A DNA stretch of 39,662 nt, taken from a virus. Its lineage: Duplodnaviria; Heunggongvirae; Uroviricota; Caudoviricetes. The translations under genes and the position numbers were made by a program. The stretch is taken from IMG/VR virus record IMGVR_UViG_2541047126_000026; one strand, written 5' to 3'. Positions 1 through 20,379 of this stretch are shown piece by piece (position 1 is the stretch's first letter; each line of letters starts with the position of its first letter). The notes beneath the pieces are model-generated. The model was not told the DNA's origin, did not search any database, and saw only the letters and a list, made by a program, of their open reading frames with translations.

Positions 1-738
1 TCACCCAATCTCTTTCAAACCGGTTTTAACAGTTTGTGGTTTTGGGTAAGGCTGGACTTTGAATAGCTTTGTGTTGAGGCGTTTTCTGGCCCTCTTGTTC
101 AGAAACCGGATGTAACGAAACTGTCGGAACTTATGAACACTGGCTCTGTCGATATTAGCCCTCAGATGTTCACCTCGTTGTCCGCCTCGTTTAATGGCAT
201 TCCTGCAAATCTCGTGATACCACTCGCCATCAAGTTCATAGAATGTTGATTCATGGCTGCCTACATAATCAAAATTGCTTGCCTGATACACGACACCAAG
301 ACAGCCACAACGCTCATCTGCAAACGACTGAACCCACTGTACCTGCGGATAAAGCTGTCTGATTAGCTTGAGCGCGTAACTGATTGCCCTTGATTCGGAG
401 TTTCTCGGCATACAGTCATGCAGCCATAGCCGGTTAAGCTCCATATATTCTCGGTTCTGCGTACCCGTTACGACGCGTGCACCACTGTTTGGGTTAAGGG
501 CGTAACCCCATTGCATTACGCCAACAAGTTCCCGTTCTGAAAATATGCCCAGATGAAGGTAGGAGTTATTTACGAAACGGTGGCTGTAATGTTTATTGAC
601 GATGACCAGTCTGGCCAGCCAGCAACTTATTGTCTCAACCCGCAACTCACGGGAGCCATAACCAACGATATTGTCGTTATAGCGAATAAGTTCAGGCGTG
701 CTGATGATTCGGGATGTGACTTGCTTTCTGTTCCCCAC
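1..738 (-). CDS. mom: Mom DNA modification protein
   Basis: 245 aa ORF; last gene of the Mu-ordered block, overlapped at its 5' end by a Com-like zinc-finger ORF; the sequence is consistent with Mom as I recall it. Confidence 0.75.
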
Positions 739-892
739 GACAGGATTTCCTTGTGTATGTGGGGTGCTCTGTGGCGCTCGGAGATGTGATTTGATTGAGG
801 GTTTTACAGCGCGGACATTTTACTTCCAGATAACTGAAACTGGCCCGTGCCAGTAGCTTATTGCAGTGTCGGCACCGTATGTTTCGATACAT
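692..892 (-). CDS. com: Com zinc-finger translational activator of mom (track ORF 692..937; ATG at 892 preferred)
   Basis: Contains [10 protein letters not shown]...VKCPRCK, a CxxC...CxxC finger like Mu Com; overlaps mom start by about 46 nt; AGGAGG about 10 nt upstream of the ATG at 892. The track start at 937 is TTG. Confidence 0.7.
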
Positions 893-937
893 GGCCGCAT
901 AACCTCCTGCTTTGTTGTTGATGCCTTTCTCATGCAA

Positions 938-1305: not shown

Positions 1306-1473
1306 ATGAAAGAGCCTGTTTGCCCTGCCTGTAAGACTCCCTTACAGCTCATCTATCGCCGTTCTCGATCTCAAAATGGCAAGACATACAAACCCAAAAA
1401 TGCTTCCTGTTTCAGGATGCTGATATGTCCTGCCTGTTCTCCCAGGAGGGAAAATACACAAAACGTGCATTAA
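1306..1473 (+). CDS. Candidate small zinc-ribbon protein (55 aa), not in the ORF track
   Basis: Hand translation MKEPVCPACKTPLQLIYRRSRSQNGKTYKPKNASCFRMLICPACSPRRENTQNVH; two CPAC motifs about 31 residues apart; AAGGAG 13 nt upstream (suboptimal spacing). Opposite strand to its neighbours. Confidence 0.25.
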   Translation: MKEPVCPACKTPLQLIYRRSRSQNGKTYKPKNASCFRMLICPACSPRRENTQNVH

Positions 1474-1511: not shown

Positions 1512-1757
1512 TTACATCATAGTACCGTCAGTTCCGGGCTGAACCGGCTCTGGTTGCTCTACGGGTTGAGGATCATTTTCCGTGCTGTTTTCAGCCGGAG
1601 AACGGCCAACCATTCGGGCCAGCACTTCATCAACATATGCGTCGATTTGTGCCTCAAAATCCTTGCGAACCTGCGCCTTCAGCACGCGGTTCACTTCTTC
1701 AGAATAAAGTGCCTGTTTGACAAGCTCTTCAGTAACCGTGCCTTTAATCTCTGGCAT
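1512..1757 (-). CDS. Hypothetical acidic 81 aa protein, cargo
   Basis: AAGGAG about 7 nt upstream of ATG; hydrophilic, Glu/Pro-rich C-terminus; no family recognised. Confidence 0.5.
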   Translation of the reverse strand: MPEIKGTVTEELVKQALYSEEVNRVLKAQVRKDFEAQIDAYVDEVLARMVGRSPAENSTENDPQPVEQPEPVQPGTDGTMM

Positions 1758-1792
1758 GAATATTCTCCTTTTGCAGGTATATTGCCCCGTTA

Positions 1793-1975
1793 TCAGAGCG
1801 GGGTCGGGTCGTTTGGGGATGACGGTGCCTGTGCTGTTTTACTGAGTTTTTCAGCTGCCGCATCATCAATTTTACGGCGAATATAATTTCTGATGACCTT
1901 ATAACCGCCGCTCACCAGATATAACGCACTGACCACTGCGCAGAAATAAAGCAGCATTGTATGAACGAATGTCAT
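1793..1975 (-). CDS. Hypothetical small membrane protein (60 aa), cargo
   Basis: Hydrophobic N-terminal segment LLYFCAVVSALYLVSGG followed by a basic stretch; plausible RBS upstream. Confidence 0.45.
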   Translation of the reverse strand: MTFVHTMLLYFCAVVSALYLVSGGYKVIRNYIRRKIDDAAAEKLSKTAQAPSSPNDPTPL

Positions 1976-2087
1976 ATAACCTTACCTTTGATATTGACTA
2001 CATAATTCGTTATCGGGTAAAAACATCGAAGCGACTGATAACCACTCCTTCGGGAGTATTTTTATTTTCCTTTATGGGTTAGGTAGC

Positions 2088-2125
2088 TCCCGCCAGCCAT
2101 ATCATGACCGGCGGGATTTTTTTAT
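2088..2125 (+). terminator. Hairpin plus T-run (CCCGCC...GGCGGG then ATTTTTTTA); loop is long, terminator-like on the plus strand only
   Basis: 6 bp GC stem with about 15 nt loop followed by a T-run; on the minus strand it is preceded by an A-run, so it does not look like the esterase terminator. Confidence 0.25.
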
Positions 2126-4161
2126 TCTGTTACCGCTTTTTTCACTTCCACCACAATGCTGTCAATCAGCACCGGGTAAGTTGCATTTTTTGTGATATCC
2201 GTTACGCGGAGTTTGTCCACCGGGAAAGTTCCTACTGGTGACTGCGTCAGGGTAAACGCGGCACCATCCTGACCATCAATAACCGGAATAACCTGAAGGC
2301 TGTTATTTCCTGCAAAACGGAAGGCCAGCGTATGCCATTCATTATCAAATGCACCAAAGGTTCCCAGTTTCTGGTTATTTGTTGCCACTTTTGCATTGTG
2401 GTACATCACATTCAGGTCTTTTGCGTCTGTCTGGATGTAGAACGATGCCAGCAGATTATTCCCTGCATCCCCTGTCAGGGTGACACCCTGCGGCAGAGAG
2501 GAAACCGGCCAGTAAAGCGCCATGACATACTGGTTTGCCACCAGGTCGCCCGGTACTTTAAAACGACAACTGATTAAACCACCATTTTTCAGCAGTTCAG
2601 CACCAGTACCGGCATCATGATCCAGATACCAGGATGATTTACCTGTTTCCTTGGTCAGTTTCATTGCCTTACCACCTGTGCCTCCTGCATCACTGATAAT
2701 TTCAGCTTTACCGCCAGCCGGCTCCCAGCCCTGGGCTTTCAGATTTCCTTCTGACTCACTGACACGATAAGACAGCAGTGTTGTGGTTACTGCTTCAGTT
2801 TCTGAAGGTGACGGCACTGGTGCTTCAGTTTCAGAAGATGGAACATCGGCTTTTACTGTGGTTCGCCCCGCATGAGTCAGAACTGCCGTGGCCAGACGGT
2901 CGGAAATAATCCCACGACGTGCCCATGAACTGAAATGGCTGGCCCGGTCCGCAGATGTCCAGGTGGCGGCACTGTTACGCCACGTTGAGCCGTAATAACC
3001 AATGGATTCAATATCCGGGTCTTCTGCCGGATTGTTGGTGGGTACATTCGCGTCATTTTCATCTGTCATTAATGGAACGAAATGAATGTTTTTATCTGTT
3101 TTGTTTTTGTAGCCGCCATAGATTGCCTGGTATGCCGGTTCATTTTTCTGTTTCCAGAAATACGTGGTATCGCCACAAATCCACGGAACGCCAGCAGCAC
3201 TGCCACCGGTACACTGTTCCGCCTGTTCAGCCAGGTCTGCGCGGAATTTTTCCACCATCGCCAGAAACAGCGCGGAATGCTCCGTCGGCTTCGCATCAAT
3301 ATCAAACTCGCCCTGCATCCACACCACAGCAAGCAGGCGGTTTTTCGGGTTCTTCGCCAGTGCCGCTTTTGTCCGGCTGATTAAGTCCTTATACAGCGGC
3401 TTATCCACACCCCAGCGGGCTGAGTCCTCTGAAGCACCCGTGCTGTCACTGTACGTGCCGTCAGCACCCGCCGTGAATGCAGAACCACCACGGCAGCAGG
3501 GAACCAGCAGAATCCCCGCATCTGCCGGAATAAACGGCAGCAGTTTTTTGGCAATGTGAAGCCCCTGACCCACGGTGCCATATTGCCCTTTAGCCACATC
3601 CGCTTTCGGGTGATTTTTTCCACTCATATCCTGCACATCATGCAGACAGTGGTCGGCCAGAATGATGTCGTTATACTGACAGGCTTTACCTCCCGGCGTG
3701 ACTGTACTGCGACGGGCTAACTGCATAATACGCGGTTCGGGGCGGTCATATGTCTCCGGCAGTGGCAGACCTTCACCGTAAGCCATACCGTTTGACTGAC
3801 CAGCAAGAACCACCACGTAATACCAGGAAGGGGAGCTGGAAGCAGTTTCATTTCCTGACGGACGGGTATGTGTTTCAGCATTATCCCAGTCTGACGGTTC
3901 AGCAGTGCCGGCAACATCAGCACTTAACGGAATGACCGCACCAATACCCGCTCCGGTAATTTCCACACTCGGATCACCGGATACTGGCCTTACCCACAGG
4001 CAATCCCGTGTATTAAAACTGATGAGACAGTCAGCAAATGTCATTCCTCCTTTTGTTTCGACCGGAGGAAAGGGAGCCTCAAGAAATGCCGCTGTACCAC
4101 CGGAAACTTTAACAGTAAAGTTTCCGGGCATTGATGATAGTTGAACCCATTTGGACGTCAT
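2122..4161 (-). CDS. Prophage NanS-p-like SGNH-hydrolase O-acetylesterase (N-terminal domain, esterase core, C-terminal lectin-like domain)
   Basis: 679 aa; GQSN motif in VVVLAGQSNGMAYGEG as in SASA/DUF303 sialate O-acetylesterases; extra C-terminal domain of about 250 aa; sits between gin and com where Mu has no gene. Confidence 0.65.
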   Translation of the reverse strand: MTSKWVQLSSMPGNFTVKVSGGTAAFLEAPFPPVETKGGMTFADCLISFNTRDCLWVRPVSGDPSVEITGAGIGAVIPLSADVAGTAEPSDWDNAETHTRPSGNETASSSPSWYYVVVLAGQSNGMAYGEGLPLPETYDRPEPRIMQLARRSTVTPGGKACQYNDIILADHCLHDVQDMSGKNHPKADVAKGQYGTVGQGLHIAKKLLPFIPADAGILLVPCCRGGSAFTAGADGTYSDSTGASEDSARWGVDKPLYKDLISRTKAALAKNPKNRLLAVVWMQGEFDIDAKPTEHSALFLAMVEKFRADLAEQAEQCTGGSAAGVPWICGDTTYFWKQKNEPAYQAIYGGYKNKTDKNIHFVPLMTDENDANVPTNNPAEDPDIESIGYYGSTWRNSAATWTSADRASHFSSWARRGIISDRLATAVLTHAGRTTVKADVPSSETEAPVPSPSETEAVTTTLLSYRVSESEGNLKAQGWEPAGGKAEIISDAGGTGGKAMKLTKETGKSSWYLDHDAGTGAELLKNGGLISCRFKVPGDLVANQYVMALYWPVSSLPQGVTLTGDAGNNLLASFYIQTDAKDLNVMYHNAKVATNNQKLGTFGAFDNEWHTLAFRFAGNNSLQVIPVIDGQDGAAFTLTQSPVGTFPVDKLRVTDITKNATYPVLIDSIVVEVKKAVTE

Positions 4162-4260
4162 AATAATCAGCCTGTTCCTGAATAAACTGAATTATCATAT
4201 CCACAGACCGATAAACGCCATTTTGCGTTAATTCAGTAAAGGCCCAACAAAGAGAGCGTC

Positions 4261-4821
4261 TTATTTTTCCGAAACGCTCGCAGGATAATAACGATAAAGG
4301 GTTGAAAGACCGATATCAAAAATAAGTGCCACCTGTCTTCGACTGACACCCCCGGCCAGTAAACGCCCGACCTGCTCGTATTGTTCCTGCGTGAGACGGC
4401 GGGGTCTGCCGCCGGTTCGTCCCCTTTCACGGGCAGCTGCAAGACCAGCCCGTGTCCGTTCGACAATTAATTCACGCTCCATTTCTGCCAGCGCACCCAT
4501 TATGTGAAAAAAGAAGCGCCCCATGGGGGTTGACGTATCAATGTTGTCAGTAAGACTACGAAAATTTATCCCCTGTTGCTGTAATTCATCTGTCAGCGCA
4601 ACAAGGTGGCGCATACTGCGCCCCAGCCTGTCCAGTTTCCAGACCATCAGCGTGTCACCGGGTTTTAGTTTCTTCAGTGCCCGCTTCAGTCCCGGCCGCT
4701 GTGTCGTTTTACCACTCATTTTGTCTTCAAAAATCTGCTCACATCCTGCACATTCCAGCGCATTTCTTTGTAAACCGGTGTTCTGGTCATTTGTTGATAC
4801 GCGTATATAGCCAATCAGCAT
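4261..4821 (-). CDS. gin: Gin/Hin/Pin/Cin-family serine DNA invertase
   Basis: 186 aa; N-terminus MLIGYIRVSTNDQNTGLQRNAL with catalytic Ser; very close to Mu Gin as I recall it; lies next to the invertible segment. Confidence 0.92.
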   Translation of the reverse strand: MLIGYIRVSTNDQNTGLQRNALECAGCEQIFEDKMSGKTTQRPGLKRALKKLKPGDTLMVWKLDRLGRSMRHLVALTDELQQQGINFRSLTDNIDTSTPMGRFFFHIMGALAEMERELIVERTRAGLAAARERGRTGGRPRRLTQEQYEQVGRLLAGGVSRRQVALIFDIGLSTLYRYYPASVSEK

Positions 4822-4851: not shown

Positions 4852-5271
4852 TGCCTTTTAAAACAGATATACGGTATCCCTGAAAACCTCGGTTTACGGG
4901 AAACGGTAAATAAGGCTGCTGATGCCCTGCCATCGGGTGGAACCGCCGTGGCAGCAAACAGACTCGCCACCCCAAGAAATATTAATGGTGTTCCTTTTGA
5001 CGGAACGCTGGATATCAACATCACGTCAGGAATGACGCAGTCAACCGCAGATGGCCGGTATGTACAGAATGTTCAGCTTGGAGCACAGAGCTATCATTCA
5101 CCCGGAGGCAATGAAATGTCATGGAATTACAGCGCACCTTCCGGTTGTATGCTTTCCGGAATTAACGTGCAGGAAACCGGCTCCCGGTCTGCGGACAATA
5201 TCGGTGGGGTCTATTATCGCCCGGTTCAGATTTATATTAATAATGCCTGGAGAACGGTAAGTTCAGTGTAA
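4852..5271 (+). CDS. Silent alternative tail-fiber C-terminal cassette (S'v-like)
   Basis: Encodes ...GLRETVNKAADALPSGGTAVAANRLATPRNINGVPFDGTLDINITSGMTQSTADGRYVQ..., homologous to the C-terminal part of the expressed fiber, then a divergent tip; wrong strand for late transcription in this orientation. Confidence 0.6.
   Translation, partial: CLLKQIYGIPENLGLRETVNKAADALPSGGTAVAANRLATPRNINGVPFDGTLDINITSGMTQSTADGRYVQNVQLGAQSYHSPGGNEMSWNYSAPSGCMLSGINVQETGSRSADNIGGVYYRPVQIYINNAWRTVSSV
4877..4902. other. gix-like crossover site 1, gin-proximal
   Basis: TCCCTGAAAACC-TC-GGTTTACGGGAA, an imperfect 26 bp palindrome resembling gix/hix; inverted relative to site 2; 27 bp (4889..4915) are identical to the reverse complement of 6239..6265. 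Confidence 0.6.
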
Positions 5272-5906: not shown

Positions 5907-6794
5907 TTATGCGCTGGAAGCTGTTTTCCACGAACCATCTATCAGAAACTGAACAGGTCGATAATATGCGGTTACCGTTGCATTACCATCACCAGCGACA
6001 TCAAGCCCTGTAAGTACGCATCCGTCAGGAACTTCAAAAATATTATATTGCATTCCAATCGTTGACCTTGAACCTCTTCGAATGCTTTGAACATAACGTG
6101 AGTCAGCCACAGACTGCGTCATCCCCGATGTAATATTTATATCCTGCGTTCCGTCAAATGGGACACCATTAATATTTTTTGGAGTGGCGAGTTTATTCGC
6201 TGCAACAGCCGTTCCGTTCGATGGCAGGGCATTCGCCGCCTTATTTACCGTTTCCCGTAAACCGACGTTATCGATAAAAGCGCCTTTATCCGGAATGTCT
6301 GCGCCGTTCTGCTCCCTGCGCAGGTAACGGTTATCACCTTCGCTTTTGCTGTAAACATCCAGATTATTACGGGCGGTTCCCGCATTCTCCAGGTCGGCAA
6401 GGTTCTGATCCTTCGCCAGAGCATTAACGTCACCGGGACCAAGACTGTTTTTTGTGGCAAGCGCCCCAAGACCAAGATAACCACGGGCAAGACGCTGGGC
6501 TTCCGCACCGGCATCAGCAATTTCTTTCAGGTTGTTTTTCCGGGAAAAGGCATTCGCAGCGATAATGGCTTTAATGGACAGCGTAAGCTGGTTTAACTGC
6601 GCCTTATCCGGCTGAATACTGGCTTCAGCCAGAATATTCAGCAGTTCGGCCTGGAGAATATTCAGCCAGTCCTGACCAATCCAGCTGATACCTTTTTGTC
6701 CGTCACCTTCGGTAAACCAGGTGGTGGTATTACTCTGCGCCGGTGCCAGCGCAGGCATATTCGCCACGCCGGAATTATTATCAACATGGAACAT
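5907..6794 (-). CDS. S: Tail fibre protein: constant part plus currently expressed variable tip (Mu S-like); track ORF extends to 6848
   Basis: Directly downstream of the gp48-like gene with TAATG stop/start overlap; C-terminal part lies inside the invertible segment and is homologous to the plus-strand cassette. Confidence 0.7.
   Translation of the reverse strand: MFHVDNNSGVANMPALAPAQSNTTTWFTEGDGQKGISWIGQDWLNILQAELLNILAEASIQPDKAQLNQLTLSIKAIIAANAFSRKNNLKEIADAGAEAQRLARGYLGLGALATKNSLGPGDVNALAKDQNLADLENAGTARNNLDVYSKSEGDNRYLRREQNGADIPDKGAFIDNVGLRETVNKAANALPSNGTAVAANKLATPKNINGVPFDGTQDINITSGMTQSVADSRYVQSIRRGSRSTIGMQYNIFEVPDGCVLTGLDVAGDGNATVTAYYRPVQFLIDGSWKTASSA
6252..6277. other. gix-like crossover site 2, inside the tail-fibre gene
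   Basis: TTCCCGTAAACC-GA-CGTTATCGATAA; left half identical to the half-site of site 1; inverted orientation relative to site 1. Confidence 0.6.
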
Positions 6795-20203: not shown

Positions 20204-20379
20204 TCCGGCAGCATAAGCCGGGAATTTTCAGGGCGGGTTTTGCGGGATTTCAGGAAGTGCTTCCAGGGGAAAAATACAAAGGCGCTTCACGCAGATTTTA
20301 AAGCCCGTTAAATTCAGGTTAGAAAATCACGACACGCGCCTGAAGGGGGTAAGGTAATGCATTTGCATACCTTAAACAA
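20204..20379 (-). promoter_or_regulatory. Intergenic region upstream of I; candidate activator-dependent late promoter (P_I equivalent)
   Basis: 176 bp non-coding gap in an otherwise overlapping gene array, at the position of Mu P_I; no motif verified. Confidence 0.3.

Follow-up and report, generated by a model that had tools for sequence, protein, structure and literature searches.

The esterase module between gin and com

The DNA analysed here (IMG/VR record IMGVR_UViG_2541047126_000026, 39,662 nucleotides, the whole stretch being called the window below) is a Mu-like transposable myovirus, as indicated by Pfam matches to MuA, MuB, the Mu-type portal, the I protease, the gpT head protein, the sheath, GemA and gp48. 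It corresponds to the Sp18 prophage of Escherichia coli O157:H7 Sakai (labelled 'prophage Sp18, Mu-like phage' in the Sakai record), with 99.1% identity to ECs_4993-ECs_4995 across 3.4 kb; these are the same genes in the same type of prophage, and the sole differences are allelic. Between the gin and com-mom genes lie three genes, for a NanS-p-type sialate O-acetylesterase and two small proteins, in the order known from lambdoid prophages. The esterase combines catalytic and lectin-like domains traded with the lambdoid pool and an N-terminal domain that stays with the Mu backbone. The genes of the interval and its flanks are the following.

4261-4821, minus strand: gin DNA invertase, left flank (Pfam Resolvase and HTH_7; 72% nucleotide identity to Mu gin)
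2122-4161, minus strand: nanS-p-type esterase gene, 679 aa, equivalent to ECs_4993 (open reading frame (ORF), Pfam and solved-structure matches)
1793-1975, minus strand: DUF1378 gene, 60 aa, equivalent to ECs_4994 (Pfam 1.2e-38; single-pass membrane protein)
1512-1757, minus strand: DUF826 gene, 81 aa, equivalent to ECs_4995 (Pfam 2.8e-15; acidic)
692-937, minus strand: com, right flank of the module (Pfam Zn_ribbon_Com)
1-738, minus strand: mom, right flank (Pfam Mom; 72% nucleotide identity to Mu mom)

An earlier note on this DNA had proposed that gin and com-mom, which almost abut in phage Mu, are separated here by about 3.3 kb of extra DNA encoding proteins of 679, 60 and 81 aa. All three genes were found at the coordinates listed, and the gin stop and the com start were measured to lie 3323 bp apart in the window versus 94 bp in phage Mu (NC_000929; gin end 35673, com start 35768). 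The boundaries of the extra DNA could not be mapped against Mu: gin and mom are the only parts that align (~72%), the DNA between the genes having diverged too far. Hundreds of genomes contain all three ORFs in intact form, and the features of the region lie far beyond chance. In the Sakai record ECs_4993-4995 are annotated as 'hypothetical protein' only, and newer annotations read 'DUF6645 domain-containing protein' or 'sialate O-acetylesterase'.

The 679-aa protein matched the Pfam families SASA (residues 116-312, 6.5e-12, above cut-off) and DUF6645 (residues 524-642, 3.8e-70). In a search of solved structures, residues 104-428 matched the chromosomal esterase NanS/YjhS (3PT5, 2e-118), and residues 459-674 matched the lectin-like C-terminal domain of the NanS-p of phage phi24B (6YP6, 2.9e-112). 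These matches, together with the conserved catalytic Ser and His, confirm the identification in the earlier note of a NanS-p-like SGNH/SASA O-acetylesterase with a lectin-like C-terminus. The protein was divided into five parts.

3877-4161, minus strand: N-terminal domain specific to the Mu lineage, residues 1-95, in place of DUF1737; predicted all-beta cupin-like barrel (residues ~1-70)
3826-3876, minus strand: linker 1, residues 96-112, Ser/Thr/Pro-rich (SSSP), bearing the recombination junction with lambdoid alleles
2872-3825, minus strand: catalytic SGNH type II (SASA/NanS-like) domain, residues 113-430 (Pfam, 3PT5 match, active-site blocks)
2788-2871, minus strand: linker 2, Ser/Thr/Pro-rich
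2125-2787, minus strand: C-terminal lectin-like jelly-roll domain, residues 459-679 (DUF6645; Pfam and 6YP6 matches as above)

All four active-site blocks of NanS are kept (GQSNG 121-125, RGGSAF 224-229, MQGEFD 282-287 and SHFS 408-411); their counterparts in 3PT5 are 17-GQSNA, 120-RGGSAF, 178-MQGEFD and SHFS-303 (PMC10792757). Catalysis by NanS depends on Ser19 and His301; its oxyanion hole is formed by Gln18 and a Gly, and there is no catalytic Asp (PMC9063846). The equivalent residues in the window protein are Ser123 (nucleophile), His409 (base) and Gln122 (oxyanion hole). Chromosomal NanS thus has a homologous catalytic domain with identical GQSN, RGGSAF, MQGEFD and SHFS motifs and the same Ser-His dyad without catalytic Asp, but it is a single-domain protein of ~326 aa, belongs to the nan regulon, is not phage-borne, and lacks the N-terminal and lectin-like domains.

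The closest relatives with known activity are phage enzymes, the catalytic domain being 81-82% and the C-terminal domain 79-80% identical to those of the NanS-p proteins of phages 933W and 1717. In assays, the NanS-p enzymes of strain EDL933, z1466 of 933W among them, acted on Neu5,9Ac2 and on mucin sialic acids with one, two or three O-acetyl groups, and NanS-p enzymes confer a growth advantage on lysogens (PMC8065619). Judged by its 81% identity to these assayed enzymes, the 679-aa protein appears to be a 9-O-acetyl sialic acid esterase, which its C-terminal jelly-roll domain probably holds on sialoglycans. The earlier note had also considered a surface polysaccharide receptor as target, which is unlikely for domains so close (81-82% and ~80% identity) to proven 9-O-acetyl sialic acid enzymes (PMC8065619). 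The protein is without a signal peptide. A single-sequence AlphaFold2 model of its entire length was unusable (mean pLDDT 33).

The two small proteins agree with their earlier description as a membrane protein and an acidic protein: residues 3-21 of the DUF1378 protein form its one hydrophobic segment (Kyte-Doolittle 2.0), and the DUF826 protein has a pI of 4.3. In phage 933W, the counterpart of the former is the ORF after nanS-p (53% identity), and that of the latter is the ORF before holin S (47% identity over 51 aa). In phages 1717 and 933W the order is nanS-p, DUF1378, DUF826, holin. Because homologous ORFs stand in the same order in these phages, the inserted block is syntenic with the lambdoid stx-to-lysis block, and it is considered with good confidence as a three-gene module, the Mu-like-phage version of the lambdoid stx-to-holin block. 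In the phage collection DUF1378 is present in 309 records and NanS-like SASA in 348, with a near-identical breakdown by organism and constant spacing; neither DUF1378 nor DUF826 was found in the examined DLP12 prophage region of K-12, which is itself without nanS-p. In the Mu-like phage the small genes moved with the esterase and not with the lysis cassette. This is an indication, not a proof, that DUF1378 and DUF826 work together with the esterase.

The lambdoid NanS-p proteins (933W z1466/933Wp42; phi24B gp84, i.e. vb_24B_21, the source of 6YP6) share with the window protein the catalytic and lectin domains, the absence of a signal peptide, a three-domain layout with Ser/Pro-rich linkers, and DUF1378 and DUF826 as following genes. 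Their genes lie between stx/Q and holin S, whereas the window gene lies between gin and com/mom of a Mu-like transposable myovirus; given this position, the window module cannot be under pR'/Q antitermination.

The N-terminal domain and exchange with lambdoid alleles

Lambdoid NanS-p has DUF1737, a capsid-docking domain, at its N-terminus, whereas the Mu-like enzyme has there an unrelated domain that is predicted to be all-beta. Of the two profiles by which the earlier note had proposed to recognise the protein, SASA matched as described and DUF1737 did not. DUF1737 was matched by neither the window protein nor the M3 and CP55 variants (933W control, 4.3e-18), and alignment of the N-domain with DUF1737 by hhalign gave a probability of 0.3%. 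DUF1737 has been described as a helix plus three strands (bioRxiv 10.64898/2026.04.10.717836).

With residues 1-110 as query, Pfam yielded nothing even at E = 10, tblastn against 50,697 phage records hit only two Mu-like phages inserted in Stx prophages, and a search of 5.8 billion proteins retrieved only near-identical E. coli fragments. The N-domain searches of protein databases returned partial proteins at contig ends only (E. coli, Shigella and Salmonella), probably as an effect of cluster representation. More distant versions of the domain were found in divergent Mu-like prophages of strains M3 and NCCP 13983 (58-61% identity) and, by a profile search of 1.84 billion representatives, in two proteins of Salmonella enterica (26-28% identity). 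In both Salmonella proteins the N-domain is followed by a linker and then by the AGQSN start of the SASA domain. One of them is encoded in a Mu-like prophage, after the gp42-gp48 tail/baseplate genes, a tail fibre, an inverted fibre segment and gin. Scans of genome and metagenome contigs with a pattern of the Salmonella-type N-domain gave no matches. Judged by these comparisons, the N-domain is unrelated to DUF1737 and is found only in enterobacterial Mu-like prophages.

In the Salmonella prophage (L042 9426-9910, GCA_037428405.1) two small ORFs (58 and 87 aa, without Pfam match) lie between gin and the esterase, and the contig ends inside the esterase gene.

The similarity of the window to lambdoid nanS-p alleles at the DNA level (78-81%) is restricted to 2133-3816, that is to residues ~116-676. 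Protein identities to the window allele were compared domain by domain.

CP55 (Mu-like): N-domain 96%, SASA 69%, C-terminal domain 46%
M3 and NCCP (Mu-like): N-domain 61-62%, SASA 70%, C-terminal domain 72-73%
IMG/VR contigs L016, L017 and L019: N-domain 96-97%, SASA 67%, C-terminal domain 38%, DUF1378 59%, DUF826 95-99%
933W and 1717 (lambdoid): N-domain ~20% (unrelated), SASA 81-82%, C-terminal domain 79-80%

Since the identities to L016, L017 and L019 drop from linker 1 to the end of DUF1378 and are high outside, this interval was taken as the exchanged block. When the window is compared with CP55, synonymous divergence (dS) is 0.14 for the N-domain but ~2.2 for SASA; when it is compared with the JNE allele, dS is 0.06 for SASA but 0.47 for the C-terminal domain. 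As dS and identity jump across them, both Ser/Thr/Pro-rich linkers were identified as recombination joints. The catalytic and lectin domains, with DUF1378, are thus traded with the lambdoid pool, and the N-domain stays with the Mu backbone. The N-domain is also under purifying selection, with ratios of nonsynonymous to synonymous divergence (dN/dS) of 0.11-0.20 in unsaturated comparisons; in linker 1 the ratio is high.

The SSSP of linker 1 was tried as a counterpart of the SSP autoproteolysis motifs proposed for phi24B gp84, and was rejected, being absent from the M3, NCCP and CP55 alleles.

Distribution, neighbouring sequences and expression signals

A survey of 5426 complete genomes of E. 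coli found the com-mom end of this type of phage in 233, the window-type N-domain in 205 (~4%), and the entire 3.4-kb stretch at high identity in 167. Gene order was examined at 38 related loci (3 RefSeq genomes, 34 IMG/VR contigs and 1 Salmonella contig), and at all 38 the tail-fibre/gin end is immediately followed by the esterase gene. As far as the contigs reach, the order is gp48-like gene, tail-fibre assembly gene, gin (not always present), N-domain-SASA-lectin gene, DUF1378, DUF826, com and mom, with the exceptions of two loci that end in SASA and of L025, in which DUF826, com and mom are displaced and inverted. Relatives without the module were sought and none was found among those inspected. 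The module, which the earlier note had regarded as an inserted cargo cassette, is hence no sporadic insertion: it is a fixed part of an enterobacterial Mu-like lineage, at the same site in all relatives with a visible flank. It is absent from Mu, and no other isolated phage record among the 50,697 carries it. In phage SfMu, the gin-mom PCR product was reported as 1.5 kb (PMC4406740).

Two records of ~93-kb Stx1a and Stx2c prophages (LC727895.1, i.e. L004, and LC727881.1) each contain a whole transposed Mu-like phage of this type, with a target duplication of 4 bp in the annotation. One and the same composite prophage thus bears a lambdoid and a Mu-type nanS-p.

Upstream of gin, the invertible tail-fibre segment is flanked by inverted repeats at 4882-5066 and 6088-6272 (81% complementary). 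Its orientation is opposite in the window and in Sakai, and also varies among near-identical IMG/VR contigs (L001, L008-L011). These differences in orientation make it evident that Gin is active. In several relatives gin itself is gone and a piece of its 3' end is left, so that gin was lost secondarily in these variants; such a loss would freeze the segment.

On the other side of the module, the interval 938-1511 contains ORFs 1007-1177 and 1306-1473 (both plus strand), which are the split counterpart of Sakai ECs_4996 (plus strand). ECs_4996 encodes 154 aa with a zinc-ribbon-like C-terminal end (CxxC...CxxC), and is broken in the window by small indels near 1155-1175. The split region overlaps the DNA upstream of com/mom, where GATC clusters (~940-965 and ~1060-1090) resemble the Dam/OxyR-controlled mom promoter of Mu. 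It is the most variable stretch of the gin-com interval, with a different ORF in M3 and an extra 66-aa ORF in CP55 and NCCP. In relatives H102 (NZ_CP116067.1, strain DETEC-S792) and H101 the match begins at com (~688-725), and the annotation beneath it names a DNA cytosine methyltransferase; in these relatives mom may be replaced by another DNA-modification gene.

Two features outside the genes were considered as possible expression signals.

4162-4260, minus strand: DNA between gin and the esterase gene; contains a ribosome-binding site and, at 4221-4235, the conserved block TGAATTAACGCAAAA
1483-1502, minus strand: GC-rich hairpin CCGGCAGG-TTTC-CCTGCCGG, read from the sequence, 10 nt past the DUF826 stop

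The conserved block (TGAATTAACGCAAAA/TGAAnTnnCGCAAAA) occurs twice in the window, at 4221-4235 (minus strand), 60 nt upstream of the esterase start, and at 20238-20252 (minus strand). The latter copy, of TGAAnTnnCGCAAAA, lies 35 nt upstream of the Mu I-protease gene, a position which we take to be the site of a Mu late promoter (PI). A related block, TGAATTTCCGCAAAAC, precedes the divergent esterase genes of the M3/NCCP type. The TGAAnTnnCGCAAAA pattern was observed 2 times versus 0.32 expected in the window, the pattern having been derived post hoc, and the block could be a late-activator site, a weak assignment made after the fact. A C-protein box of the form TTAT-N6-ATAA gave 0 matches in the window, which means that this form of the motif is incorrect or that a different site serves in this lineage. 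No k-mer common to the gaps that may hold late promoters was found. The hairpin at 1483-1502, missed by a consensus scan, is likely to mark the end of the module transcript.

Role of the enzyme and its significance

As the esterase lacks a signal peptide, it would reach its substrate only after lysis. Phage-induced lysis would release it to its extracellular sialoglycans, where it would strip 9-O-acetyl groups from mucin sialic acids or from free Neu5,9Ac2, the lectin-like domain retaining it on the glycan. Once de-acetylated, the sialic acids would lie open to sialidases and the nan pathway of E. coli, and those sibling lysogens that survive could use them. The N-domain may tie the esterase to the Mu-type virion or to another Mu-specific partner, as tailspike head-binding domains do. 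In phi24B, NanS-p (gp84) is an abundant structural protein, its DUF1737 forming a hexamer that is bound in the hexon at the centre of every capsid face, with linkers that are later processed (bioRxiv 10.64898/2026.04.10.717836). The earlier note had suggested testing for virion association, aptly in view of this capsid decoration. Because the N-domain replaces this capsid-docking domain, and because it tracks the Mu backbone while the other domains swap, it is tentatively read as a virion adaptor specific to the phage type, the reading with the fewest assumptions but one that is possible without being probable. The fuller proposal, by which the N-domain mounts the esterase-lectin unit on the Mu-type virion and two unrelated phage morphotypes display sialoglycan-editing enzymes, is more doubtful.

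Several observations weigh against the account of the module given so far. The AlphaFold2 model of the N-domain, predicted all-beta with pLDDT of 80-89 over residues 1-70, was built on four sequences, and fold searches with it gave generic cupin matches only. Small cupin domains are frequently mere dimerisation modules. A paralogue of the N-domain is absent from all structural genes of the phage. In the scan for consensus promoters and terminators, the number of promoters was not above that in shuffled sequences, and none of the sites could be ascribed to the module. Finally, Sp18, a prophage apparently intact by prediction, is not induced by mitomycin C (PMC2669165).

The main rival explanation has a substantial chance of being correct, although we stop short of calling it probable: a pure lysogenic-conversion ('moron') module without a role in the virion. 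The enzyme would be made from the prophage (e.g. by read-through from gin, which is expressed constitutively) or released by lysis, and would feed the lysogen population on O-acetylated sialic acids, with the N-domain as no more than an oligomerisation or extra glycan-binding module whose inheritance along with the Mu backbone is incidental. The missing paralogue and the resemblance to small cupins fit this explanation, as does the position of the esterase gene, which follows gin directly and in the same orientation, with 99 bp between the two and no terminator that could be recognised, at the accessory right genome end beside com/mom where morons accumulate. NanS-p has moreover been found experimentally to give lysogens a growth advantage (PMC8065619). 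However, without a signal peptide a live lysogen cannot expose the enzyme to an outside substrate; the strict binding of the N-domain to one phage type, while the other domains swap, is what a virion adaptor would be expected to show, and a generic oligomerisation module hardly accounts for it; and what stands at the homologous place in lambdoid NanS-p has been proven to be the capsid anchor (bioRxiv 10.64898/2026.04.10.717836). A place on the tail rather than the capsid, where the enzyme would de-O-acetylate the O-antigen or a sialic-acid-containing capsule and so aid adsorption, was raised for NanS-p in a review (PMC8065619), and is improbable here. It would suit a gene that immediately follows the tail-fibre/invertible segment and gin, and the SASA domain weakly matches a PHROG family of tail proteins (phrog_25867, 4.4e-05) and is 31% identical over ~197 aa to a 'minor tail protein' of Arthrobacter phage Giantsbane (MN703412.1, H146). 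However, the O-antigen of E. coli O157 is not known to carry sialic acid, and the catalytic and lectin domains are exchanged with lambdoid phages of different tails and receptors. The same domains are ~80% identical to enzymes acting on Neu5,9Ac2 and mucin sialoglycans (PMC8065619), and the phi24B counterpart is on the capsid, not on the tail (bioRxiv 10.64898/2026.04.10.717836). The explanation of the locus as a functionless, decaying recombination remnant of a lambdoid prophage could draw on the richness of O157 genomes in lambdoid nanS-p alleles (median of 3 and up to 12 places per genome with any match), but it is effectively refuted by conservation, the three ORFs being intact in >200 genomes and in divergent relatives, dN/dS being 0.1-0.2 in every domain, and the active-site blocks being intact.

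The matches to Giantsbane and phrog_25867 indicate that SASA esterases are built into the virions of other phage groups too.

A functional analogue of a virion-borne esterase is provided by the haemagglutinin-esterases of influenza C, corona- and toroviruses, which combine a virion-associated sialate-9-O-acetylesterase with a lectin (PMC3266934); no homology is claimed, although NanS and the viral haemagglutinin-esterases share the SGNH fold (PMC9063846). Haemagglutinin-esterases are envelope glycoproteins of eukaryotic viruses that serve reversible receptor binding, whereas the host of the phage is a bacterium and not a sialylated cell. Virion association has been demonstrated for the lambdoid homologue only, and is proposed by extension for the Mu-like enzyme.

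Prophage Sp18 and its ORFs are already in public records, and the genes themselves are not new. What is new is the lambdoid gene order shared by the module, the Mu-specific N-domain in place of DUF1737, and the mosaicism with the lambdoid pool. In the searchable literature, which did not include key subscription papers, no paper was found that ties NanS-p to Mu-like phages or mentions ECs_4993-4996.

Esterases of the NanS-p type are believed to aid E. coli that produce Shiga toxin (STEC) in feeding on gut mucin, and have been studied in lambdoid prophages only. O157:H7 and other STEC bear a further nanS-p copy in a Mu-like prophage, which belongs in allele counts and in knock-out designs, and which a census of domain architectures would miss because DUF1737 is missing from it. 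If the N-domain does not bind virions, this copy is merely one more ordinary NanS-p allele in a known prophage. The locus is nevertheless a natural experiment, in which the docking domain changed in step with the type of virion, and it bears on the question of whether NanS-p serves the particle or the lysogen. It also provides a compact unannotated domain limited to Mu-like phages, the binding partner of which can be directly searched for. If the N-domain does mount the enzyme on the Mu-type virion, DUF1378 and DUF826 would serve as assembly or release factors for the esterase, and NanS-p would be primarily a structural accessory of the phage for life in mucus rather than a nutrition gene of the lysogen. 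It would then be the phage counterpart of the viral haemagglutinin-esterases, with an exchangeable 'anchor + enzyme' design that parallels the modularity of tailspikes.

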